Assembly (NCBI GenBank): GCA_045594565.1
Contig: JAZNYT010000121.1
Location: 1-60,460 of the forward strand
Direction of reading: 5' to 3'
DNA length: 60,460 nt
From: Eubacteriales bacterium
GTDB taxonomy: Bacteria; Bacillota; Clostridia; Oscillospirales; SIG627
The notes below the pieces were generated by a model. The model was not told the DNA's origin and searched no databases. It was given only the letters and a program-made list of their open reading frames with translations. The number at the start of each line of letters is the position of its first letter. The stretch's first letter is position 1. Shown in pieces: positions 17,717 to 43,020 of this stretch. The position numbers and the translations under genes were made by a program.

Positions 17717-19820
17717 TTACTTCTTAAACTTAGCAAGAACAACCTTTGACTCGTTTGTAAGCTTAGCTGTGTAATGCTCGTCTGCTGAAATAACGGTAGT
17801 TTTAGCGAGAATATCTCTGTCGTCTTCGACCTCAACGTTTCGCTTCATGTAAATTGTAATAGCCGCATCTTCGGGAGCAACGCCGTCAGCTTCTGGGGCT
17901 TCGTTGGGGTCTGCCTTTGCAACAACAACGATAGGATTAAGCCAGTTTCCTGCTCCGTCGTCCTTTACCTTCTTGGACTTAACGACCTGACAGCCTGCAA
18001 TCTTACCGATAACGCCGTTCATGACAACGTCAAGAGGATATTTGTCCTTAGACTTGAAATTATCGTCAAGAAGAAGTGTTTCTTCCTGAAGAGGGTGGAT
18101 ATAGATAACTTTTTCCATTCCCTCGTCAACTTCGTCTTCAAATTTAGTGTTAGCTTTAACAACGCCGTCATAAGAAATAGCTCCTGCACTTCCGTCATAA
18201 ATAAGAGAAGCCTTGCAAAGTTCCTCATAACAGTCGGTATCTACCTTTGCACCTATAGACATTGTAATCTGTCTTGTTGCTTCGCCGATAGGGTCGCCGT
18301 AGCCCGAAAGAACGGACTCGTCTGTAATTTCTACCGCCTTACCCGCTTTCTTTACAGTTGCCTGTGTGCTGGAAGCGGTAAGAACAGTGGTACCCATAGC
18401 CACACCTTCAGCCACGTCCTCAGCATCGCCGATATCATTTATATTCATGTAAGTTCGCTACTCCTTACACCGCTCTTTTACGAACCGCTATATATCACTA
18501 TATAGATTAGACTATATCACCAACTCAATGAGTTGCCCCCCATTTCCACACGCTTGTGTGTACTCCATAAATGGATAGTCGTTGAACCTTGTTAGTCAAA
18601 AAGAAATTCATTCAAAACTTTGTTTATTTTGTCATTTCGTAAATACCAATATGGTATTCTCAACAACGGAATATTGTTTTTATTGCAAAAATCATTTTTG
18701 ATTTGGTCATGTTCAAACACCTTGTTTACTTTATACACAGACCTTGTTTCCCGATAATGTTGAATGCCATCAAATTCTATGAGTTTTTGTCTTCCGTTGA
18801 CAATGACCATAAAATCAAATGGTAAGGATAAAACATCTTTACAATTAGTAAAACGATATTGAGGTTCATACTCGAAGTTATGTTTAATCAAGTATTCTTC
18901 GATAAATAACTCACCTTTTGATTTTATGCATTTAGGACATCTTTCTGAATACAATAAATCTTTTGGTATAACTTCCCATTCATATCCGCATATATGTTTT
19001 ACACGAATCGGTGTTCTGTTATTAACATATTCACCAACAATTTGATATTTATTGGGATATTTATCGTGAATTATACTTGCAAATTTATACGTGTCTTTCA
19101 TTCCATGACAGATAGGGCAACCACTTTCTTTACTCAAGAGATTCCCGGCATTCACATAATATTCGTGATTACATTTCCTATTTCTGACATAGATTTTCGA
19201 TTTAACACCTTTGTATTCACCTAAAATGTCGATGTAATCAATATTTTTGCTTAAAAGATTTTGTGAAAAGGTTTCTTTGGTTTTAGTTTTAGATTTTGAA
19301 ATTGTTTTACCTTTGCACAAAGAACATCTTTGCCCATACAAAAGTTTTGAAGGTTTTTTGTAATCTTCGTGACCACAATCTTTATATCTAACTAACACTT
19401 TTGTGTTATTTGAAATATAATCACCTAAAACTTCAACATTATCATCGTTTAATTCTGCAATAAATTGTTCTTTTGTTTTTCTTTTTGACATATACAACAC
19501 CTCAATATATTATATCATATTTTTGACAAAATATCAATATTTAGGTATTGTAGTAACCTTGGCTGCTGATTGTCTTATAATCACGATGCATTCACTATAA
19601 GAGTTCCCAGCAATTAGAGGGGTTTTCTATGCGTGTCACCACACATAGGCACATTTGTTTATGCGTACTTAGGGATTGTGATTGTGTCACCTGCTCTGCC
19701 TGCGAGGGTGGTGTCGATGTGAGCAATAGGGCTGAACTTGATTTTCTTGGGGAGAGTTGCCGAAATCATATCCGCCATAACCTGAGGATTGATTAAATTA
19801 GCGAGTTTGGTCTGTGCCAT
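17717..19820 (-). CDS. Major capsid protein, spliced: join(19820-19661, 18435-17717), 292 aa
   Basis: Exon 1 MAQTKLANLINPQVMAD...ITIPKYA plus T joins AT ATC GGC GAT to give PKYAYIGDAEDVAEG in frame. Confidence 0.92.
18436..19660 (-). mobile_element. Group I intron (IA2-like), 1225 nt, in the capsid gene
   Basis: 5' exon ends in U with P1 U.G (GCAU/GUGC); ends in omega-G; P4 UGCUG/CAGCA; P7 GACUA/UAGUC with J8/7 GUGAUA; P7.1, P7.2, P8, P9 hairpins. Confidence 0.92.
18592..19491 (-). CDS. Intron-encoded homing endonuclease (zinc-ribbon repeats plus Vsr/EDxHD-like nuclease)
   Basis: Three C..H/CPxC repeats; C-terminal PFDF...IEFDGIQHY...HD..K..LLRIPYW; lies in the P6a loop. Confidence 0.85.
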   Translation of the reverse strand: MSKRKTKEQFIAELNDDNVEVLGDYISNNTKVLVRYKDCGHEDYKKPSKLLYGQRCSLCKGKTISKSKTKTKETFSQNLLSKNIDYIDILGEYKGVKSKIYVRNRKCNHEYYVNAGNLLSKESGCPICHGMKDTYKFASIIHDKYPNKYQIVGEYVNNRTPIRVKHICGYEWEVIPKDLLYSERCPKCIKSKGELFIEEYLIKHNFEYEPQYRFTNCKDVLSLPFDFMVIVNGRQKLIEFDGIQHYRETRSVYKVNKVFEHDQIKNDFCNKNNIPLLRIPYWYLRNDKINKVLNEFLFD

Positions 19821-19844: not shown

Positions 19845-20465
19845 TTACTCCTTTGATAAGGAGTCGTATAAATCTTTGTTTTCATTGTAGAGAGCCATTC
19901 TGTCTTTATAAGACATTTTGTTAAAGTTCTCTTTTGTGATTGCGGGGTCATTGTCTGAGCTTTCGCCGACTGTTGCCCCTTTCAGCTTGGGCTTTGTCTC
20001 CTTTGCTTCAAAAAGGTATGCGTCGGACTTTTTAAGTGCATCAATCTGTTCCGAAAGGCCCTTAATAGTTCCGTCCTCGGAAAGCTCGGCTTTATCAAGG
20101 TCTTTAAGAAGTGCCTTTACTGCTATGGCGTTCTTTGCTTTAGCATCTGATAAAGCACTGTCAACCGCCGTGTTGATTTTTAGCTGTTTGATTTCAGCAG
20201 CGTGTGCTTCGTCCTTAGCCTTATTGTCCGCCTGAAGCGTTGCTATTTGGTTTTTAAGCGTTTCAACGTCACCGGTAGAGTTTCTCAAGGCTTCAAGCTG
20301 TCCGTCCCTTTCCTTAACGAGTGCCTCCGCCGTGTTCTTGGCGGTGTTTACCTCATCGAAACGGGCTTTAGGAATAAATCCCTTAAGCTCCTCGAGTGAA
20401 GCCGTCTCGCACTTCTTCGCGGTGTCCTCGTCAATACCTAGTTTCACAAAGTCTTCTTTTTTCAT
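19845..20465 (-). CDS. Capsid scaffolding protein (GP20-like)
   Basis: FIPKARFDEVN, AKNAIAVKALL, directly upstream of capsid. Confidence 0.88.
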   Translation of the reverse strand: MKKEDFVKLGIDEDTAKKCETASLEELKGFIPKARFDEVNTAKNTAEALVKERDGQLEALRNSTGDVETLKNQIATLQADNKAKDEAHAAEIKQLKINTAVDSALSDAKAKNAIAVKALLKDLDKAELSEDGTIKGLSEQIDALKKSDAYLFEAKETKPKLKGATVGESSDNDPAITKENFNKMSYKDRMALYNENKDLYDSLSKE

Positions 20466-20720
20466 GGTTTATACCATCCTTTCATAATCATTTTTTGACC
20501 CGGTTCTGTCCGGTCTCTTACGTCTTGTTCTTTTTCGTCTGCAATACCAAAAAGACGAATTTATCAACATCGGCTATGAGCCGAAATATTGACCGCTGTT
20601 GCACGAAAAAAACACCCTAATTATAAAGAGGGTGCCTTAATCATAAAAAGCCGAAATATCGCAAACTGTGCGATTTGTGGGGCGTTGTGGAACACACTCG
20701 TGTGTTTTTACTGTGTTTTG

Positions 20721-21116
20721 TTAGTCTTTTAACACTTCGGGGTGTTCTGATAAATAATCTTTTATAATAGCAATATCCGATTTGATGTGTTTAAGATCAT
20801 CGTCCTTAAACAACGATTCATAATCACCTTTTTCAAAATCTTCAATGTGCCAATTAACAGCACAAGCCATAAGTGGATCTATCTCGTTATGTGACATTTG
20901 ATATAAGAAGGCTGCTATAATAAGCGCCAGCCGCTCCATTCCATTTTCCGCAAGTAAATCTTCATAAAGCCACTCCAGAACTCCTTCCGAAGCATCAATG
21001 GCGGTGCGAGTGTTGTCACTTTTTATAAGCTCATTACTCTTTCTCTCAATGCGCTCATAATAATAAGAATAACGCACTTTTAATGGAATTTTAGCAAAAG
21101 TTTCGTATGCCGCCAT
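20721..21116 (-). CDS. Putative immunity protein for the MuF toxin
   Basis: Acidic, all-helical, TAATG overlap with the toxin stop; function inferred from position. Confidence 0.65.
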   Translation of the reverse strand: MAAYETFAKIPLKVRYSYYYERIERKSNELIKSDNTRTAIDASEGVLEWLYEDLLAENGMERLALIIAAFLYQMSHNEIDPLMACAVNWHIEDFEKGDYESLFKDDDLKHIKSDIAIIKDYLSEHPEVLKD

Positions 21117-22861
21117 TATTTAACCTCTTTTCTGTTCAAGTAAGTGTTTAATCCTAAGTGGTTTTTGTTATAACCAGGCTTGCCGGAAATAATATTAACC
21201 GTAGCTTTTGGAAACATTTCTTTGAACTGTTCAACAACTCCCTGGCAACTCGCACAGATGTGTTTTTCAGATAGTATTGTAACGGTAAAAACATCATCTG
21301 GGCTCTTCTTTGTAGCAACAAACTCTAAGAACTTTGCTTCGGTATCATATTTACGGGGTGTTTTGTCATTTTTATAGGCTTTCTTAACAGTAAACTTGCA
21401 ATTACTCTGCAAAGGGACTACGGGATATTTACCAGTATACAAACTTAAATCATGCTCTCCGAGTTCACCAAATGCACTGTTTGAATAGTAAATTGTATCT
21501 TCAAACAGCATTGATGCTGAGTTTGCTCTTGTTTTCAGCCTTTCAATATCTTTCAGTATTGCTTCATCATGAATACCAGACGAATCAAAACCAAGATTTT
21601 TGGTATACCAGGCTGCATTATCAAGTTCAACTATAGTTTTAACTGGAACATTACCTTCGATCTCGTATCGGTTGACAGTTCTATATTGATATTTTAAGGT
21701 TTCATACTTCTCTTTATCATTATACTTAATTTTTATAAATTCGTCAAGGCTGTTTGGCGCTAACTCTTTTAATACGGCTTTGTATCTGTCGAACTGTTCG
21801 GCGTTACTTGATTTACCGTATATTCCGTAATTAGCATCGTTTATATATAACTCAGACCATTGCTTATAACTCATATCTCCAGGAACGTAATAGGTTTTAC
21901 CGTCAGAACGCCTTGCAGCTCTCTCGGTAAAGTTATCATCAAAGTATGGTACTGTAACCGACCTACACCATACGTGAAACGGAAAAGCCGTCAGCCCCGG
22001 CTCATATTCACTCATAGGAAAAACTTTGCCGTCCATCTCCTGACATATTTCTGACGTGTGCGAGTCAAGCGTTGCAACTATTTCATATTTTTCAACTTCA
22101 AGTTCCTTAAAGGCTTCTTTCTGTGCCACCGAGTGAAAATATGCTTCTTCGGTCATCACAAGTCGCCCTGCCTGCTTTTTGGTAACATCGAAACGCTTTG
22201 ATATTGCATTGATTGCGTCATCAGGACCTTTGCCTAAGAGACACGTCCTCGTTAACTCTTTATGCAGCACGTCAACGAGCTGGCTTCTTTGCTGCCAAAT
22301 TCTTTCCGAAAAGTTTTTGCCATCGGATGCCCAGGGCTTAGAAATTATTTTTTCAAGTTTCCTCTCATCTATCTGTGCAGGCTCCCAGCCAATGTTGAAG
22401 CCCTTTTGCATTTCAAAAATGCTGTGGTAATAATCTTCGGTATATACTCGTCTTGCGAGTTCATCGATAACATCAAGCTCATTTCCGAAAGCGACCTCAG
22501 CCGCGTTTTGCACTCGTATTTTCAGAGCTTCGAGTCTTGAAATATGAAATTTGGCAGAGGCATTTTCAAGCTCTTTTACCCAGCCACCGTTAAGAGCGTT
22601 TTCCCGACCTTTGCTGACGTACTCGTCAACGTCCCACCGAAGCTCTTTGAGTTCTTTTGCAGTCAGCTGGCGACGGGCTTCCATCATATTGACTTGTTTA
22701 TTTTTCATATATCTACCGAACCAGGCTTCAATTTCCTTTTGAATTTCCCTCTCGGCAGAAGAAAAAGCAGATTCGATTTGATGGTACGCTTTAGCACCGT
22801 ATGCATTAGACGCTTGTTCAAGTTGTATAAAACGATTTCGCCAATATTCTGATGATTTCAT
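21116..22861 (-). CDS. MuF/SPP1 gp7 minor head protein fused to a deaminase-type toxin domain
   Basis: MuF core ATLDSHTSEIC...FHVWCRS; C-terminal RKYDTEAKFLE...SEKHICASCQGVVEQF (DxE plus CxxC). Confidence 0.85.
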   Translation of the reverse strand: MKSSEYWRNRFIQLEQASNAYGAKAYHQIESAFSSAEREIQKEIEAWFGRYMKNKQVNMMEARRQLTAKELKELRWDVDEYVSKGRENALNGGWVKELENASAKFHISRLEALKIRVQNAAEVAFGNELDVIDELARRVYTEDYYHSIFEMQKGFNIGWEPAQIDERKLEKIISKPWASDGKNFSERIWQQRSQLVDVLHKELTRTCLLGKGPDDAINAISKRFDVTKKQAGRLVMTEEAYFHSVAQKEAFKELEVEKYEIVATLDSHTSEICQEMDGKVFPMSEYEPGLTAFPFHVWCRSVTVPYFDDNFTERAARRSDGKTYYVPGDMSYKQWSELYINDANYGIYGKSSNAEQFDRYKAVLKELAPNSLDEFIKIKYNDKEKYETLKYQYRTVNRYEIEGNVPVKTIVELDNAAWYTKNLGFDSSGIHDEAILKDIERLKTRANSASMLFEDTIYYSNSAFGELGEHDLSLYTGKYPVVPLQSNCKFTVKKAYKNDKTPRKYDTEAKFLEFVATKKSPDDVFTVTILSEKHICASCQGVVEQFKEMFPKATVNIISGKPGYNKNHLGLNTYLNRKEVK

Positions 22862-22910: not shown

Positions 22911-23300
22911 TTATAACGCGAGTAATTTTTTCACAGTTTCTGAGTCAGTAATCTCAAATACCCATCGTTCCGATGCAAGTTCTGCCGATGATATACCGTA
23001 TAACGAAAAAGGAATGTAAACCCCGTCTTTACGAGGAATCAACATAGACAAATCAAAAGATGTTATTCCTTGCAAAATATCCTCTGGTATGCCCTTATTC
23101 ATTTGTGGGTTGGGACAAATGGCAACAGACAAATATGTGTGCTTGTAGCGGATATTATTTGCACCAATAGCAGGAACTTCAACACTGTCTTCGTAAATCT
23201 CGATGTTCGGTACCGCTTCTCCTATCATCAATCTGTTATGATGTGAAATAGCATAAATTTCACAAGATTGTCCGTTTATGGTTTTAATTAACTTTTTCAT
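22911..23300 (-). CDS. Hypothetical beta-rich protein
   Basis: GGAG RBS, clean ORF; faint tube-like motif only. Confidence 0.6.
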   Translation of the reverse strand: MKKLIKTINGQSCEIYAISHHNRLMIGEAVPNIEIYEDSVEVPAIGANNIRYKHTYLSVAICPNPQMNKGIPEDILQGITSFDLSMLIPRKDGVYIPFSLYGISSAELASERWVFEITDSETVKKLLAL

Positions 23301-23355: not shown

Positions 23356-24039
23356 TTAGGTGCTTTCTTCAAATAGTTCAGGGTAAAATTCCCTCTCAGC
23401 CCTCTCCCGTGCTTCAATTGCTTCTTCGAGGGTATCAAAGTAGCCGAGACGATACATTTTTCCGTTTTTCTGTATTTGTGCTATGTATTTTCCGTTTGGG
23501 CTTTTACAAACTCCTGTATGTCCTGATGTGCTACTTCGTGGTCTTCGATTATTGGCTTGAGTGAAATAATCAGCCCAACGACAGTTGTCCGGAAAATACC
23601 CGCGGTCCACGTTTATACGGTCTATGGTTAAGTCATCTGAATAGCCGTGTGTCATAGCCCATTTAGAGAAGTTAATAAAGCCGTTTTCTCCAATCCACTC
23701 GTCACATACCTTTACCCCTCTCGCACCATAGTCTTTGTAGTCTTTATTGTTAGGATTATAACATCTCTGTTTCATCCCCTTATAAATATTGTATAACCTT
23801 GTTCCTTTCATTCCGTGCTTCGTTTTGGATTCTCTTGCTTGTTCTTTCAATAAACAACCACAAGATTTTGTATTGCCACTGCGAAGAGAACGACCGCAAA
23901 CAACCACTTCTTTCTGGCACTGACATCGGCAAAGCCAGAATTGATTGTGGCTTTTTATACCATCGGGTCGAGGAGCAGGCTCTATAACTGTCAGGCGACC
24001 GAATTTTTTTCCTGTTATATCCTTTGCCTTACGACCCAT
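23356..24039 (-). CDS. HNH-like endonuclease with AP2 domain
   Basis: Paralog of 845-1513; start moved to MGRKAKD after GAGGG. Confidence 0.85.
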   Translation of the reverse strand: MGRKAKDITGKKFGRLTVIEPAPRPDGIKSHNQFWLCRCQCQKEVVVCGRSLRSGNTKSCGCLLKEQARESKTKHGMKGTRLYNIYKGMKQRCYNPNNKDYKDYGARGVKVCDEWIGENGFINFSKWAMTHGYSDDLTIDRINVDRGYFPDNCRWADYFTQANNRRPRSSTSGHTGVCKSPNGKYIAQIQKNGKMYRLGYFDTLEEAIEARERAEREFYPELFEEST

Positions 24040-24173
24040 GACAAAGCCCTCTCTTTCGCTTTCATTTGACAACGCGGAGTCATTCTTTCTTGAAGTTGCC
24101 GAAGGACTTCCTTTTTCTCACTTTCGGTGAGTGTTTTCCAGAGAGTGAGGATTTCCATATCTTTTTCAAGCAT
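24015..24173 (-). CDS. Micro-ORF (WKTLTESEKKEVL family)
   Basis: [36 protein letters not shown]; overlaps the HNH start as at 1498-1647. Confidence 0.7.
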   Translation of the reverse strand: MLEKDMEILTLWKTLTESEKKEVLRQLQERMTPRCQMKAKERALSWVVRQRI

Positions 24174-24187
24174 TTCAGTCACACCCC

Positions 24188-24385
24188 TTAATAAGTCCTG
24201 TCGTATTCCTTGCACCACGCTTTTGCAGAGCCTAAATCACCAACCGAGCATTGTTCAATTCCGTTTTCGTAATTCTCGCCCTCGTCGAATACAACAAAGC
24301 AAGGAAATTCGTACCATCTCTTTTTACATTCTTCCTTAGTAAGTTCGTAAATATCATATCCGTATGCTGTTTCAATTTTTTTCAT
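24188..24385 (-). CDS. Small hypothetical protein
   Basis: GAGGGAG RBS, MKKIETAYGYDIYE. Confidence 0.65.
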   Translation of the reverse strand: MKKIETAYGYDIYELTKEECKKRWYEFPCFVVFDEGENYENGIEQCSVGDLGSAKAWCKEYDRTY

Positions 24386-24414
24386 TTTTGTTTTCTCCCT
24401 CAATGTATTTTTTC

Positions 24415-24532
24415 TTGATTTTTTTGCCTTACTGTGTTATAATGAGGGCAGGAAGCCGTAAGGCTGGCTTCTTGCCCTTTTGGGTTTTTAGTGAGTGATT
24501 ACCTTTGCAGTGGTGGGTCACTCACTATTTTT
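24415..24532 (+). ncRNA. Antisense promoter plus predicted ~85-nt sRNA
   Basis: TTGATT(24415)-17-TATAAT(24438), hairpin GGGCAGGAAGCC/GGCTTCTTGCCC, terminator TAGTGAGTGA/TCACTCACTA-TTTT. Confidence 0.55.
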
Positions 24533-24646
24533 CTATTCGCCCATAATCTTTTGAACTCTTTCACGCAGTTCTTCAAGTGTTTCGCACTTCTCAATCAATT
24601 CAAGAATTGCTCTGAGCAGTGCAAGTGTTACGTTCAACTCGTTCAT
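24533..24646 (-). CDS. Amphipathic micro-ORF, 37 aa
   Basis: GGAGAGAGAGG RBS; MNELNVTLALLRAILELIEKCETLEELRERVQKIMGE. Confidence 0.65.
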   Translation of the reverse strand: MNELNVTLALLRAILELIEKCETLEELRERVQKIMGE

Positions 24647-24831
24647 ACCTCTCTCTCCTTTCTAAAAGGCTTACTGCCTTTGCCTTACAGTTATATTATA
24701 CACTAAAAAATTGATAAAGTCAATATATTTTTGATAATTATTTCAAAATATTTTTTATTTTTTCAACATTTAATTGACAACATAGATTTTAAGGTGTATA
24801 ATAAAACAAAAAAAGAAAGGAAAATTATATA

Positions 24832-25047
24832 ATGGCATTAAGTGAAAGAATAAGAATTTTGCTAGTAAAAAGAGGAAATATCTCTGAAGCCGAACTTGCT
24901 CGTCGGTTAGACATTAGTCCTCAAAATCTTAACAACAAAATGAAGAGAGATAACTTTACAGAGAAGGATTTATCTGAAATTGCCAAAGCTTTAGACTGTA
25001 CTTTTTCGGTAACCTTTACATTAAACGATACAGGCGAAGAAGTTTAA
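24832..25047 (+). CDS. XRE-family HTH regulator
   Basis: ISEAELARRLDISPQNLNNKM; TTGACA/TATAAT promoter upstream. Confidence 0.85.
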   Translation: MALSERIRILLVKRGNISEAELARRLDISPQNLNNKMKRDNFTEKDLSEIAKALDCTFSVTFTLNDTGEEV

Positions 25048-25051
25048 TAAA

Positions 25052-26551
25052 CTACTCTTCTTCGCCCTCTCCATATTCAAACTTATTACCACCGTTATTA
25101 GAGCCGAAAGCGTTACTATATTCCGCTTCGGCTTTTTCTTTTTCCCTCTCGATACGGGCAATCTCTTCTTGAGGATTTCCTACCCACGGATGTTGAGCTA
25201 CTAACGTTTCATTTGAAAGAATGCCGACAGATTTATTTATATTGTCGATAACATCTGACTCAGATATAAGCATATCACGATTAAAAATTATATCAACACA
25301 CTCACCCTCGAAGTCTCCCACGCCTGTATTGGCGAAATGACAGTTAATGAACCACAACAGTTCTTCAAACGCAGATTGGTATTCTGTTTCCGTTCCGTTT
25401 GCATCTAACTCTATGTCGCTATACATTGACTGAATGTTCATTTGATTCATATTTCCGGAGGAAAGACGCTCATCAGTAAAATCAAAGCCCATTGCATTGC
25501 TTACAATTGCCTTTTTGAAGATTTCAAGAATTGCTTTGTAGTTTTCGGAATTGACTTCTACTTGAAGGGTTTTAAGGTCGCCCCCTGCGCCGTCAACTGT
25601 CTTAACTTTTACTGCTCCATATTGAGCGAGGTTGCGCCTGAATTCCCCAAGATTTTGACCGTCGTAATTTACGAGAACAAGGATGGTATTTCGGGTATCT
25701 TCTTCCATGTTATTTTGAAAGTTTGAAATAATAGTATTCAAGCCGTCCTGGAGCGTCTTAACCATTTTTATGAGAGGAATTTCTTTGCTATTATACTTAA
25801 ACGGAACAAGGGGAATTTTAGTCCAGTTATAGCCTGTTTCTTTCCCTTCGGAATCGGTCGTAGTAAAGTAATTTGAGAAGAAAGGCTCAACGGGCTTCAA
25901 TAAACCGCTGCCGTTTATCTCAAAATAGCTTATTCCCCTCTCGTCGTAGACTTCGACCCTCTCTACGACCTTTTCTTTTCTCTTTTCGACTACAACGACT
26001 TCGTAAAGCCTTATCGCACCGTCGAGTATCATGTGTTCGGAGTCTTTCCATAGAGGAATAATTTCATAAGGCTTGAACCTCTTGAAAGAAAGTTCTCCCC
26101 TCTCGTCGTAGTAAACGTAGAGCCAACCCAGACCACAATTAAGAGAGTCTTCACCCACTGCTTTAAGTAGACGGTGAAAACGTTTATTAAAAACGTCATT
26201 CAACGCTTTTGTGTATAGCTCGTTTTCACATTGTATGGAAAAAGGTTGCCCCAAAAGATAGTTATTCTTTTGGTCAACCATTTTCTTGTATTGATTATCA
26301 ACTATTCTGTTGTTCGGAAGGTTTTTAACCTCTTGAAGCTCTCCACCCTCGCCTATAACAGTTCTAACTCTCGTTAAAATATCGTGCTGACCGATATAGT
26401 ACTTTTCGCCGATAAACATAACGTTTCTTCGCTGCGAGATTTTGAATCGGTTAATCTCTTTTAATATGTATTGTTCATCGGTAAGTCTATCTTTGCCAAG
26501 CACAACGGCGTTTGCCAGTTTGGCGGCTTCGCTTAGAAAAAATTTGAACAT
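25052..26551 (-). CDS. Portal protein (SPP1-like)
   Basis: NNRIVDNQY, EIIPLW, IPLVPFKYN, LLWFI. Confidence 0.92.
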   Translation of the reverse strand: MFKFFLSEAAKLANAVVLGKDRLTDEQYILKEINRFKISQRRNVMFIGEKYYIGQHDILTRVRTVIGEGGELQEVKNLPNNRIVDNQYKKMVDQKNNYLLGQPFSIQCENELYTKALNDVFNKRFHRLLKAVGEDSLNCGLGWLYVYYDERGELSFKRFKPYEIIPLWKDSEHMILDGAIRLYEVVVVEKRKEKVVERVEVYDERGISYFEINGSGLLKPVEPFFSNYFTTTDSEGKETGYNWTKIPLVPFKYNSKEIPLIKMVKTLQDGLNTIISNFQNNMEEDTRNTILVLVNYDGQNLGEFRRNLAQYGAVKVKTVDGAGGDLKTLQVEVNSENYKAILEIFKKAIVSNAMGFDFTDERLSSGNMNQMNIQSMYSDIELDANGTETEYQSAFEELLWFINCHFANTGVGDFEGECVDIIFNRDMLISESDVIDNINKSVGILSNETLVAQHPWVGNPQEEIARIEREKEKAEAEYSNAFGSNNGGNKFEYGEGEEE

Positions 26552-26643: not shown

Positions 26644-28179
26644 TTAGATCATTGCTTCTTCTATGGCTGCAAGGCGGTTTATAATGCTATCAACAACAAA
26701 GTTCAAGTCTCTGTTGTATTTCACTTCTATCTCTGCACCCTTACAAATTAAAGTCATTGATGGATAAGAATGTGGTATACTATCGCCAATGTTATATTCC
26801 TCAGGTGGCTTGTATGGATGATAAGGTGATTTTTTTCCTATCTCTAGCTTAAAGTTTTTGTAAGCAACTGTTTCGCTTGAATCTCTTCCGTGGTCTGAGA
26901 AAAGAGGTCTAAGAAATACGTATTTAGTTTTCCTGTTCCCCTTTCTTTTGAATTTTAAGTCAAAAACTTCAGATATAACATTGCTCCCTAGGGCTCCCCA
27001 AAATTCATCCGCTACACCGTCTTCGTATAGCAGCCCAAAAGCCATACGGAGATTGGATGGTATGACAGCATCTACCGACAAAGTAAGCATTTGTCCATCT
27101 AATGCTTCAAGCATATCAAAAACGGCTTCATCATGGCACCACAATTCTCCATAATGGTTGTTCTTCAATGCAATATGAAGTACATCATCTGACCACTTAC
27201 AAATTCCAAAATTTTGAATAGTGAAATTTGATATATTTAATAAGTTATCTCCAAACACTTTTATTTTTGTGTCCTCGGTTATAGGTGGCGAAAGTTCCTC
27301 ACCTTTACTTAACATCGGTTTGATTGTTATGTTGTATCTTTCACCCGTCTGTGTTATAGTTCCTATAGTCAAATCGAATTCGGTTTCTGCGTCAATAGTA
27401 AAAGTTCCACCAAACCACTTTTCATTAACATCCTTCAAGTACACTCCGTATACTCCGTTATTTACGTCATTGCCACTTTCTTCGTAATCGAATGTATACG
27501 TTCCTGAAGGAAGCACGATTCTTTTTATTGTGGTTTCAAGTGACATAGGAACATCGTAACCGTTATTACACACTCCCTGCAGCTCAATACGTCCATCTTT
27601 ATGTATCGTATATTGGAGTCCACCCATATACTCATCGCCGTTATCGTTTATTTCGTAAGGGATAAGGGGAATATTATTTGATGATATCTCGACCTTTACG
27701 TCGTGCTGAACTTCGGATACATCTTTTAACGCTATTGCGGTTTTCCCTAAAGCCTCGCCTCTTAATGCTCCTGCAAAAGAATTATGTACTTCGGTAGCCG
27801 CTTCTATCACCTGGTCTACCCAGGGCTTTGACGGGTCAGGCACTTCGGCGCTTGAATTGTCAAGACCTTCGGAAACAATAGTTTTCCATGTATGCGACTT
27901 AACAATAACATCACCTACAACGTAACGGAGTTCGCACTTACCCTCACCCTCAATATCGGTGTCGGAAGAGGACACTTCCCAATATATAACGCCGTCTTCG
28001 ACCTTTAATGCTACGGGGTAGGGTGCAGCGTCGCCGTTTCTTTGGTGAAATAAATAGTATTCACCTTTCCCAAATTCACTTTCCCATATTGAGCATTCGT
28101 CAAACACAATTCTTCTTGCAAGGTTTTCCCCTCTTTTTCCTAAGTGGATAACCCCACATATAGCTTTATTTTCAAACAT
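26644..28179 (-). CDS. BppU-N-like, beta-rich structural/adhesin protein
   Basis: LGKRGENLARRIVFD...YPVAL...EGEGKCEL N-terminal domain; repeated beta-sandwich-like body. Confidence 0.6.
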   Translation of the reverse strand: MFENKAICGVIHLGKRGENLARRIVFDECSIWESEFGKGEYYLFHQRNGDAAPYPVALKVEDGVIYWEVSSSDTDIEGEGKCELRYVVGDVIVKSHTWKTIVSEGLDNSSAEVPDPSKPWVDQVIEAATEVHNSFAGALRGEALGKTAIALKDVSEVQHDVKVEISSNNIPLIPYEINDNGDEYMGGLQYTIHKDGRIELQGVCNNGYDVPMSLETTIKRIVLPSGTYTFDYEESGNDVNNGVYGVYLKDVNEKWFGGTFTIDAETEFDLTIGTITQTGERYNITIKPMLSKGEELSPPITEDTKIKVFGDNLLNISNFTIQNFGICKWSDDVLHIALKNNHYGELWCHDEAVFDMLEALDGQMLTLSVDAVIPSNLRMAFGLLYEDGVADEFWGALGSNVISEVFDLKFKRKGNRKTKYVFLRPLFSDHGRDSSETVAYKNFKLEIGKKSPYHPYKPPEEYNIGDSIPHSYPSMTLICKGAEIEVKYNRDLNFVVDSIINRLAAIEEAMI

Positions 28180-41902: not shown

Positions 41903-41945
41903 AATTCCTCTCTTGCTGACGCAAAAGAGGAGAAAGGAGAACATT

Positions 41946-42941
41946 ATGACAAGACGCTCTGACGGATTATGGCAAGAGGCTATGACCATAAACGGAAAAA
42001 GAAAATACTTTTATGGCAAAACCAAAGCCGACGTTCTGAAGAAGATAAAAAACTTCGAAGAACAGCAGGAAGGCGGAATACTGTTCTCCGAAGTAGCAGA
42101 GGATTGGTGGGAGGAACATTCCGAAAAGGTAGTTCACTCTACGATGCACGGATATCATGCACGTTTTGTTTATGCTGTTGAAACCTTCAAGGACAGATAC
42201 ATAAAGGATATTACCGCACAGGAAATAGCAAATTTACTTAAAGCCCTGCAGCTTAAAAAGTATTCGCAAAAGGTAATATCCACACAGCTCAACGTTATCA
42301 ATATGATTTTTAATAAAGCAATTATAAACGGAGACATAATGCACAATCCTTGTTCTGCCGTTCAGCTCCCCAAAGGACTCCCTAAGAAAAAAAGAGAGCT
42401 CCCCACCGACATTGATTTTGAAATAGTGGAGAACAGTGATTGGCTACTCCCTTTCTTCCTTCTCTATACCGGCTGCAGACGTGGTGAATCACTTGCAGTA
42501 ACGTATGAGGATATCGACTGGGAGAAGAAAATTATTCACATCAATAAAGCCGTTGGCTTTAAGGAAAATAAACCATACATTAAATCAACAAAAACCGAAG
42601 CAGGTTTCAGAGACGTTGTTCTTCTTGACAAGCTTGCCGAAAGACTTGACAAGTCAAAGACGGGTCTTATCTTCCCAAACAACAAGGGGGAGATGTGGCA
42701 CGACTCAATGCTTACAAGAAAATGGAAGCAGTGGCAAAGAAGAAATAACACGACTGTTACCGCACATCAACTACGACACGGTTACGCTACTATTCTATTT
42801 GAGGCAGGTCTTGAGGCAAAGGATGCACAGTACCTTTTGGGACACAGTACGATAGCAATGACGCAGGATATTTACACTCATATCAGACAAGCGAGACAGA
42901 AAGAATATGCGTCAAAATTGAACGATTTTTTCAACAAATAA
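41946..42941 (+). CDS. Tyrosine integrase
   Basis: TGCRRGE, HQLRH, LGHS..MTQDIYTH. Confidence 0.95.
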   Translation: MTRRSDGLWQEAMTINGKRKYFYGKTKADVLKKIKNFEEQQEGGILFSEVAEDWWEEHSEKVVHSTMHGYHARFVYAVETFKDRYIKDITAQEIANLLKALQLKKYSQKVISTQLNVINMIFNKAIINGDIMHNPCSAVQLPKGLPKKKRELPTDIDFEIVENSDWLLPFFLLYTGCRRGESLAVTYEDIDWEKKIIHINKAVGFKENKPYIKSTKTEAGFRDVVLLDKLAERLDKSKTGLIFPNNKGEMWHDSMLTRKWKQWQRRNNTTVTAHQLRHGYATILFEAGLEAKDAQYLLGHSTIAMTQDIYTHIRQARQKEYASKLNDFFNK

Positions 42942-42994
42942 TGTAAAAATGATGTAGTAGGCTTGATTTAGCCTTATATACGGCATTTTATTGG

Positions 42995-43020
42995 GGGTTC
43001 GAATCCCATCACTCACCCCA
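42995..43020 (+). other. att core at the phage-host junction (attR-type)
   Basis: Same tRNA 3' fragment as 103-128, followed by host terminator; T-stem not fully paired, so not a full tRNA. Confidence 0.85.

Follow-up and report, generated by a model that had tools for sequence, protein, structure and literature searches.

MuF toxins of temperate phages were defined by Zhang et al. 2012 (PMC3482391) and Jamet et al. 2017 (PMC5576092), and both papers predict capsid delivery, as had Iyer, Zhang, Rogozin & Aravind 2011 (PMC3239186). In the 2011 study, 'terminase based' is among the delivery modes given for the BURPS668_1122 clade of deaminases; its authors cited the C. perfringens AC5_0860 example and proposed packaging into the capsid, and also gave RxxDxExK, with Asp replacing His/Cys, as the normal motif of that clade. 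More recently, cytidine deamination in ssDNA by PF14424-clade enzymes was reported with a base-editor reporter (Huang et al. 2023, bioRxiv 10.1101/2023.05.21.541555). The characterised MuF members are the Apk2 (p)ppApp synthetases and the Bxa ADP-ribosyltransferase (PMC11699363), and the main text and examined supplements of Jamet et al. 2017 contain no deaminase among the MuF toxins. Interbacterial DNA deaminase toxins are represented by DddA (SCP1.201/BaDTF1, dsDNA), SsdA (DYW-like/BaDTF2, ssDNA) and BaDTF3 (PMC7901873, PMC12494967, PMC13346905).

The locus described here lies in a gut Clostridia MAG, on a stretch of 60,460 nucleotides that was analysed as a whole (the window). It belongs to a temperate, contractile-tailed prophage of ~42.9 kb (window 1-43020), bounded by identical 128-bp terminal repeats at 1-128 and 42893-43020. 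Integrase, terminase, portal, sheath, tape measure and lysin genes are all present, and the phage is apparently intact; no tRNA was found at the att site within the window. The head module runs terminase, portal, an insert of HTH, HNH and 129-aa genes, MuF, scaffold and capsid, and the portal protein is the expected binding partner of MuF/gp7. Sequencing runs containing the sequence were gut-metagenome DNA only, with no RNA runs found. Coordinates of the principal features are collected in Table 1.

Table 1. Principal features of the MuF-deaminase locus and its prophage (window coordinates).
Feature	Coordinates	Strand	Basis
MuF / SPP1-gp7 minor head (capsid-targeting) core, residues 1 to ~341 of 581	21839..22861	(-)	PF04233, TIGR01641, phrog_115
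Conserved pre-toxin linker module, residues ~342-441	21539..21838	(-)	travels with deaminase domain on different carriers
BURPS668_1122-clade (PF14424) deaminase toxin domain (predicted), residues ~441-581, with stop codon	21116..21538	(-)	HMM, motifs, AF2 model
Candidate cognate immunity protein, 131 aa, acidic, five-helix	20721..21116	(-)	ORF, TAATG overlap, locus comparison
Putative exchangeable toxin-immunity cassette	20560..21703	(-)	DNA comparison with sister phage L028
Promoter-like TTGACG-17-TATAAT, within coding sequence	21719..21747	(-)	11/12 consensus positions
Scaffolding protein; first conserved gene past cassette	19845..20465	(-)	PF06810, E 3.5e-41
SPP1-type portal protein	25052..26551	(-)	PF05133, E 1e-87
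Tyrosine integrase	41913-42941		

The ORF at 21116-22861 (minus strand) encodes a protein of 581 aa. Its first ~340 residues had been read at first pass as a MuF/gp7 head protein, and profile searches bear this out. PF04233 (Phage_Mu_F) matches residues 199-303 (E 6e-12, 46.7 bits, cut-off 29.6), TIGR01641 (phageSPP1_gp7) matches the protein with E 4.5e-20, and the match to phrog_115 (minor head protein) spans residues 1-437. Sequence shared with MuF proteins that carry other toxins stops at residues 335-347.

Judged by sequence, the last ~140 residues form a compact BURPS668_1122-clade deaminase whose motif is Asp/Cys/Cys. The first-pass annotation had recognised a DxE plus CxxC signature of this type, and the profile score, the invariance of the motifs and the structure model all agree with it. 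PF14424 (Toxin-deaminase) matches residues 456-559 with E 6.7e-13 and 49.4 bits, above the curated gathering cut-off of 29.6, and a six-frame search of the organism's own genome gave 51.9 bits. The RxxDxExK motif is present as R503-K-Y-D506-T-E508-A-K510 at the start of a predicted helix (507-516), and the CxxC motif as S-E-K-H534-I-C536-A-S-C539, with C536-A-S-C539 heading helix 537-549. The 'S' of the clade's CxxCxS is absent (CASCQG), Q-G following the motif here versus x-S in the clade. RxxDTEAK and SEKHICxSC are invariant in ~100 metagenomic homologue clusters whose overall identity is only 45-72%; the Asp, Glu, Lys, His and two Cys residues of these motifs are all retained.

The AF2 model of the toxin domain (pLDDT 87.5, pTM 0.82) places its elements in the order a1-b1-b2-[45-aa insert]-a2(DxE)-b3-a3(CxxC)-b4, which is that of the deaminase core. 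In the model the domain ends after b4, leaving a single strand after a3, and so appears C-terminally truncated. A Foldseek search of the PDB with this model returned AID/APOBEC chains as the dominant group in the top 50, with probability up to 0.97, but these matches are weak (best E 0.14, TM ~0.4). Because of these weak E-values, the fold call is based on the HMM, the motifs, the element order and the composition of the hit list. Sequence searches with the 581-aa protein gave chance matches only among PDB chains, and no solved structure from the BURPS668_1122 clade was found among them. Likewise, Foldseek of the model against the viral BFVD yielded no meaningful match.

Between core and warhead lies a segment (~350-440) first described as a helical linker. 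Our comparison replaces this description: the MuF core ends at ~335-347, and the stretch after it is a module that is conserved and accompanies the deaminase domain. Its identity is 45-68% in three carriers with unrelated N-termini (P0003, P0032 and P0098), whose toxins are 49-69% identical to this one, and its portion up to ~residue 394 is also present in Ntox50-type MuF toxins. Overall, the same deaminase is found on three unrelated virion carriers, namely PF04233 proteins, PF06152 proteins and a 974-aa protein beside a P22-type portal. Conversely, MuF cores with 63-77% identity bear Ntox50, Gln_amidase, PBECR2, ADPrib_exo_Tox or unknown domains, with the break between close cores and differing toxins falling at residues 335-415.

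The sister phage P0113/L028 illustrates this exchange. Its MuF core is 91% identical to the one studied here, versus only 32% for the deaminase. In blastn, 87% identity extends up to window position 21704, is lost across 21703-20560 and resumes at 20559; homology with both L028 and a further locus (L030) is back at the scaffolding protein. The immunity ORF swaps along with the toxin subtype, and the downstream ORF is far more divergent where that subtype differs. These comparisons mark out a single exchangeable cassette that starts at residue 386, in the conserved linker, and runs through the 131-aa gene to its end.

The 131-aa ORF, noted at first pass as acidic, helical and overlapping the toxin stop, has all of these properties. 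The stop codon TAA shares one base with its ATG (TAATG), and AGAGG lies ~8 nt upstream. The protein has a pI of 4.69 (27 D+E, 15 K+R) and is predicted to be all-helical, with five helices. Members of its family lie directly 3' of the toxin in related loci (L001, L003, L005-L008, with a duplication in L006) and in 16/16 evaluable genome loci. This co-inheritance within the cassette supports reading the protein as the cognate immunity factor. Intact copies also adjoin decayed toxin tails in three loci (L025, L026, L027). In L025, the intact copy and the toxin remnant adjoin a type I R-M gene.

Assignment of the 131-aa protein to a known immunity family was less successful. The first-pass annotation had suggested a search of Imm-family models; these went unmatched, and the cognate-immunity reading is still supported by locus comparison. 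The family has no match in Pfam (including Imm3), PHROG or NCBIfam; 13 members searched against Imm3, Imm2 and other Imm models gave none at E<=5; and PF14425 (Imm3) found nothing in the organism's own genome. Membership of Imm3 (PF14425) or Imm2 is therefore rejected at the HMM level, only the general all-alpha, acidic description being common. A profile of the family found nothing in the PDB, and Foldseek matches to its model were confined to generic helical repeats (E above 1). The order was surveyed in 301 genomes; the toxin occurs in 3 of them and the immunity gene in 2, and on these counts the idea that orphan immunity genes outnumber toxins is rejected, orphans being confined to L025-L027.

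The MuF-deaminase with a neighbouring antidote is common in gut metagenomes, and the same fusion occurs in two deposited phages, Terrisporobacter phage TVCOM_ph1 (PP197245.1) and Clostridium phage phiCT9441A (NC_029022.1). In each, the genes between portal and scaffold include a minor head protein (PF06152 or PF04233) joined to PF14424 and, after it, a small ORF; the phiCT9441A ORF is a distant relative in the same immunity family (E 3e-10). TVCOM_ph1 particles are obtained from culture supernatant. Their deaminase domains are only ~30% identical to ours, and the fusions are annotated merely as 'minor head protein'. Given these phages and the 'terminase based' delivery already in PMC3239186, the novelty initially attached to a phage head with a deaminase tip was overstated. 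The locus is a clear but ordinary example, its architecture, motif and delivery idea having been published in 2011-2017.

The locus shares with MuF polymorphic toxins an N-terminal MuF/gp7 domain encoded in the head module beside the portal, a C-terminal toxin that varies between close MuF cores, a small ORF (<150 aa) directly 3', and a temperate phage in a Firmicutes gut host. Unlike the characterised members, the warhead here is a predicted nucleic-acid deaminase, and a single non-enzymatic immunity candidate stands in place of the hydrolase-plus-binder pairs of Apk2 and Bxa. As in other BURPS668_1122 deaminases, the domain forms the C-terminal end of a delivery protein and is followed by an all-alpha immunity gene; however, that immunity protein is matched by neither Imm3 nor any Pfam model, and the subclade is almost wholly phage-borne, unlike the clade generally. 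With DddA, SsdA and BaDTF3 it would share a C-terminal toxin of zinc-deaminase fold that is neutralised by a small helical protein encoded downstream, and by analogy C-to-U damage and mutagenesis would be the expected outcome. In contrast to those toxins, it belongs to another clade, has no sequence match to any solved chain, carries DxE rather than HxE, and would be delivered by a phage capsid rather than a T6SS.

Taken together, these data point to a MuF polymorphic toxin of a temperate prophage, with a deaminase tip, that is delivered by the capsid and neutralised by the coupled 131-aa protein. We assign this reading a probability of roughly 80%, on the strength of sequence comparison and structure prediction. 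According to this model, the MuF part would bind the portal, so that each capsid would enclose a few copies of the fusion protein, which would exit with the phage DNA on infection. The deaminase, with Asp as its putative first zinc ligand, would then turn cytosine into uracil in the recipient, most likely where replication and transcription bubbles expose single-stranded DNA. Until immunity is made, the recipient, or a rival element residing in it, would be damaged or mutagenised. The acidic helical protein, translationally coupled to the toxin, would bind and block the active site in the producing cell, and its conserved ENGM loop may cover the D506/C536/C539 pocket. Counting against this explanation are the place of the immunity gene in the late operon, where protection of a lysogen is hard to account for, the rarity of orphan immunity genes and the weak Foldseek E-values.

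A further feature may bear on the lysogen. A promoter-like site within the coding sequence spans codons S-L-D-E-F..I-K-Y-N just upstream of the cassette junction, and equivalent sites exist in L001, L007, L012, L018, L028 and L029. In a simulation of synonymous codons over 14 loci, the observed mean match was 9.0/12 versus 8.24 expected, with per-locus P values of 0.03 to 0.9. This weak excess is suggestive at best of retention of a putative promoter site beyond the constraint of the peptide motif. An extended proposal holds that the virion injects a ~140-aa Asp-liganded cytosine deaminase with its genome, such that infection would uracilate and mutagenise recipient or rival-prophage DNA, and that additionally the segment coding for the linker peptide (S/T)L(D/E)EF..IKYN serves as a sigma-70-type promoter (21747-21719), from which lysogens could transcribe the immunity gene with the late operon shut off. 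In this full form, we regard the proposal as unlikely.

Several alternatives differ from the preferred reading in substrate, place of action or activity. The same MuF fusion could be injected yet act on something other than DNA cytosine, such as RNA (tRNA/mRNA), free nucleotides or a nucleotide signal, and thereby serve early host take-over or counter-defence rather than killing. The first-pass annotation had called the substrate unknown. This is only partly true: the clade's sole functional report is of ssDNA cytidine deamination (10.1101/2023.05.21.541555), and assays of the phage-borne subclade are not known. In the model, truncation after b4 and the 45-residue insert over the pocket could alter specificity; some MuF cargos, such as alarmone synthetases and ARTs, are non-lethal modulators (PMC11699363); and the gene is borne by an apparently intact phage. 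Nonetheless, a dedicated immunity gene, and toxin-tail remnants beside intact immunity genes, are more in keeping with a harmful toxin than with a benign modulator, and together with the ssDNA report they make a non-DNA substrate quite unlikely.

We consider it very improbable that the C-terminal domain acts only in the producing cell, as a prophage addiction or abortive module or an assembly accessory with the 131-aa protein as antitoxin or chaperone. Toxin and partner are indeed translationally coupled in the manner of a type II TA pair, and no MuF toxin has yet been demonstrated to be delivered (PMC11699363). Yet the domain is always a C-terminal fusion on a virion protein, across three unrelated carriers, occurs free-standing beside its partner only as a decayed remnant, and is encoded in a late head operon that is silent in the lysogen. 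A catalytically dead domain, i.e. a degenerate deaminase fold decorating the capsid interior, might be suspected from the Asp in place of the usual His/Cys zinc ligand and from the missing terminal fold elements. But DxE is the clade's normal motif (PMC3239186), the six motif residues are invariant across the divergent homologue clusters described above, and the cognate immunity gene has been retained, all of which leaves this idea barely credible.

The alignment made here could define the 131-aa immunity family, which Pfam lacks. Because the toxin domain is small (~140 residues) and comes from a clade for which ssDNA activity is reported, the domain and its dedicated inhibitor could serve as a compact editor/off-switch pair. 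To our knowledge, MuF toxins whose warhead is a nucleic-acid deaminase have yet to be tested. If such activity and its capsid delivery were shown here, it would mean that temperate gut phages can bring a DNA-editing enzyme into cells, with a bearing on phage-driven mutagenesis in the microbiome.

The feature under study consists of two ORFs whose positions and domain calls are listed in the table. The first-pass annotation had described a MuF head protein fused to a BURPS668_1122-type deaminase with DxE and CxxC motifs, followed by an acidic helical ORF overlapping the toxin stop, and this description and family assignment proved right. Both Pfam scores exceed the curated cut-offs, and the quoted motifs are present (R503-K-Y-D-T-E-A-K510 and S-E-K-H-I-C536-A-S-C539). 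The fusion also matches NCBIfam TIGR01641 (SPP1 gp7 minor capsid) and, over residues 1-437, PHROG 115 (minor head protein), both in agreement with Pfam. The two genes are translationally coupled: the stop of the first and the start of the second overlap by one base (TAATG), with an AGAGG Shine-Dalgarno sequence preceding that start. The 131-aa protein is acidic (pI 4.69), and a five-helix bundle is predicted for it (pLDDT 88.8).

Coordinates and domain calls of the toxin and its candidate immunity protein
Feature	Location	Strand	Basis	Score	Curated cut-off
MuF-deaminase fusion, 581 aa	window 21116-22861	-	ORF		
Candidate immunity protein, 131 aa	window 20721-21116	-	ORF		
PF04233 (Phage_Mu_F)	residues 199-303 of 581-aa protein		Pfam	46.7 bits	29.6
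PF14424 (Toxin-deaminase, BURPS668_1122 family)	residues 456-559 of 581-aa protein		Pfam	49.4 bits	29.6

Members of the BURPS668_1122 clade carry RxxDxExK in helix 2 and CxxC at helix 3, and are often truncated past helix 3 (Iyer et al. 2011, PMC3239186). By HMM and motif, the 581-aa protein belongs to this family. Modelled with AlphaFold2 from 68 sequences (pLDDT 87.5, pTM 0.82), residues 434-581 show the element order a1-b1-b2-(45-residue insert)-a2-b3-a3-b4 with nothing beyond; a2 begins with D506/E508, and a3 with C536/C539. In a Foldseek comparison to the PDB, AID and APOBEC1/3 chains dominate the top 50 (probability ≤0.97), with weak E-values (best 0.14) and TM ∼0.4, a result in keeping with a deaminase fold though not by itself proof of one. 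Sequence searches of the PDB returned no chain matching the toxin protein, and hence the structure of the clade is apparently unsolved. In ∼100 homologue clusters (formed at 90% identity), the R, D, T, E and K of the first motif, SEKH and both cysteines are invariant, even though homologues share just 45-72% identity over the deaminase domain, which argues for an active enzyme. The PF14424 domain is rare yet widespread: among 1.8 billion proteins it has 282 representatives when clustered at 50% identity, and within the host's order 3 of 301 species genomes carry it. One genome of that order holds two tandem short PF14424 ORFs (194 and 209 aa; G041:C27:97918-99319) of another subtype; the 131-aa-type immunity family is absent there, and the pair possibly represents an orphan array or a toxin not borne by a phage.

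Four lines of evidence identify the locus as a polymorphic toxin cassette: variation of the carrier, variation of the warhead, sharp DNA junctions and tracking of the toxin by the 131-aa gene. The deaminase, together with a conserved stretch of ∼90 residues preceding it, is found on PF04233 MuF proteins of unrelated lineages (e.g. P0003, with an N-terminus 22% and a toxin 69% identical), on PF06152 minor-capsid-2 proteins (P0032, P0083) and on a 974-aa protein adjoining a P22-type portal (P0098, locus L006). Conversely, the N-terminal 430 residues are matched by >8000 proteins; among the best 120 of these, cores 63-77% identical bear Ntox50, glutamine deamidase (PF15644), PBECR2, ADP-ribosyltransferase or unknown domains, and homology to MuF proteins with other toxins ends at residues 335-415. 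The nearest relative, P0113 of sister phage L028, is 91% identical over residues 1-340 and just 32% identical in the deaminase domain. At the DNA level, 87% similarity to L028 ends at window 21704 and restarts at 20559, shortly before the scaffold gene. Similarity to a second sister phage, L030, whose different C-terminus has no Pfam match, ends at 21871 and restarts at 20557.

The partner gene is inherited with the toxin. Homologues of the 131-aa gene lie directly downstream of the toxin in related loci L001, L003, L005, L006, L007 and L008, with two tandem copies in L006, and the family adjoins the toxin downstream in all 16 evaluable species-representative genome loci. Where the deaminase is of a different subtype (L028, L029 and phiCT9441A), the downstream ORF is a very distant relative of the family, and where the toxin is not a deaminase (L030), the gene is wholly replaced. 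Judged from these gene neighborhoods, the 131-aa gene is associated with the toxin and not with the phage. Three further loci retain just the last ∼55 toxin codons, lacking the DxE helix and the carrier, and an intact immunity gene follows each; one (L027) has two toxin-tail/immunity pairs, and in another (L025) the remnant adjoins a type I restriction R subunit. Polymorphic toxin loci typically contain such displaced tails beside immunity genes that are still live. These decayed tails provide indirect evidence that cells encounter the deaminase toxin from outside. The L025 chromosomal islet (L025:2060-4038) also contains two paralogous 108-aa ORFs (...FEKYNLKLN(D/N)DFIEYVLE...) with no Pfam match, and looks like a mixed poly-immunity locus.

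The immunity family itself is marked by a conserved ENGM stretch, in which G-M is invariant and N nearly so, and by a second conserved pattern, DFExG-Y..LF...DL...DI. A check against PF14424 and the Imm families had been proposed in the first-pass annotation; the toxin half was borne out, while the 131-aa family is recognized by no Pfam model (Imm3 included, after a check that it is PF14425) and finds no counterpart in PHROGs, NCBIfam, PDB sequences or PDB folds. Imm2 and Imm3 of the BURPS668_1122 clade are all-alpha and charged (Zhang et al. 2012), a character that the 131-aa family shares. As it fits this description but fails to match the Imm3 HMM, we regard it as a family not yet filed that serves the same role. 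A 129-aa ORF without a Pfam, PHROG or NCBIfam match (window 22911-23300, minus strand) lies upstream of the MuF gene. It is missing from L028 at the corresponding site, and its homologue in L030 (77% DNA identity; L030:4943-5342) lies downstream of the distinct MuF toxin there, past a 53-aa ORF. Possible identities for the 129-aa ORF are a mobile moron and an orphan immunity gene against the L030-type toxin.

The window is a complete contig of a 2.0-Mb MAG (91% complete), and its sequence is present in public runs of gut metagenomes only. Relatives come from MAGs of Oscillospiraceae, Acutalibacteraceae and other gut Clostridia, sampled from human, goat and roe deer. Identical 128-bp direct repeats (window 1-128 and 42893-43020) bound a region encoding a tyrosine integrase, large terminase, SPP1-type portal, the MuF fusion, scaffold and capsid proteins, tail sheath, tape measure and amidase endolysin, apparently a complete temperate contractile-tailed prophage of ∼42.9 kb. 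The contig start coincides exactly with one repeat copy, and the simplest explanation is that the assembly broke at the att repeat; a search with ARAGORN showed the window to be free of tRNA genes. In head modules, the portal and MuF genes are usually adjacent. Here they are unusually separated by an XRE-type HTH gene, micro-ORFs and an HNH endonuclease (window 23356-25047; phrog_374, E 2e-89), a block also present in L030. Between large terminase and portal lies a 511-aa ORF (window 26644-28179, minus strand) without a Pfam match at E≤1e-4; in L001 and L003, different small genes occupy this gap. The major capsid gene is interrupted at window 18436-19659: a 302-aa zinc-finger/nuclease-like ORF separates a 53-aa piece from a 243-aa piece. 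The L028 gene is contiguous at that point (blastn aligns window positions 19660 and 18435 to one and the same L028 position, 4084), which fits an intron/homing-endonuclease reading.

SPP1 gp7-type proteins are portal-bound minor head components, and the cassette sits in the late head operon of this temperate phage. For MuF toxins, packaging and ejection with DNA have been proposed (PMC3482391, PMC5512222, PMC5576092). Toxin deaminases of other clades (DddA, SsdA, BaDTF3) kill and mutagenize by C-to-U conversion, and small immunity proteins plug their active sites (PMC7901873); in one screen, PF14424-clade enzymes deaminated ssDNA cytidine in a base-editor reporter (10.1101/2023.05.21.541555). 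At this locus, the fusion would be packaged in the capsid and injected into the infected cell, where it would act on ssDNA cytosine, and the 131-aa protein would neutralize it. Because the 131-aa gene sits in a late operon, immunity of the lysogen needs explaining. A promoter-like site (TTGACG-17-TATAAT, 11 of 12 consensus positions) lies within coding sequence at window 21747-21719, a short way upstream of the cassette junction, and is found again in several relatives at the corresponding codons, (S/T)L(D/E)EF..IKYN. In a synonymous-codon simulation of 14 loci, the mean match was 9.0/12, compared to 8.2/12 expected from the peptide motif alone. A promoter function for this site is a possible lead and not a finding.

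The suggestion that such a toxin is new does not hold, as the kind was already well described computationally. Iyer et al. 2011 (PMC3239186) listed 'terminase based' delivery among the routes of the BURPS668_1122 clade, and noted a C. perfringens deaminase toxin adjoining terminase and capsid genes, proposing capsid packaging. The MuF system was named by Zhang et al. 2012 (PMC3482391), and MuF toxins were defined by Jamet et al. 2017 (PMC5576092), whose main text and accessible supplements do not mention a deaminase among them. Characterized MuF toxins comprise Apk2 and Bxa only (PMC11699363). The same minor head-deaminase fusion occurs in Terrisporobacter phage TVCOM_ph1, from culture supernatant, and in C. 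tetani phage phiCT9441A, annotated in both as just "minor head protein". The remaining value of the locus lies in the case it presents of a predicted deaminase warhead carried by a capsid protein, in a putative compact enzyme-inhibitor pair for which it is a source, and in its use as type locus of a candidate immunity family absent from Pfam.
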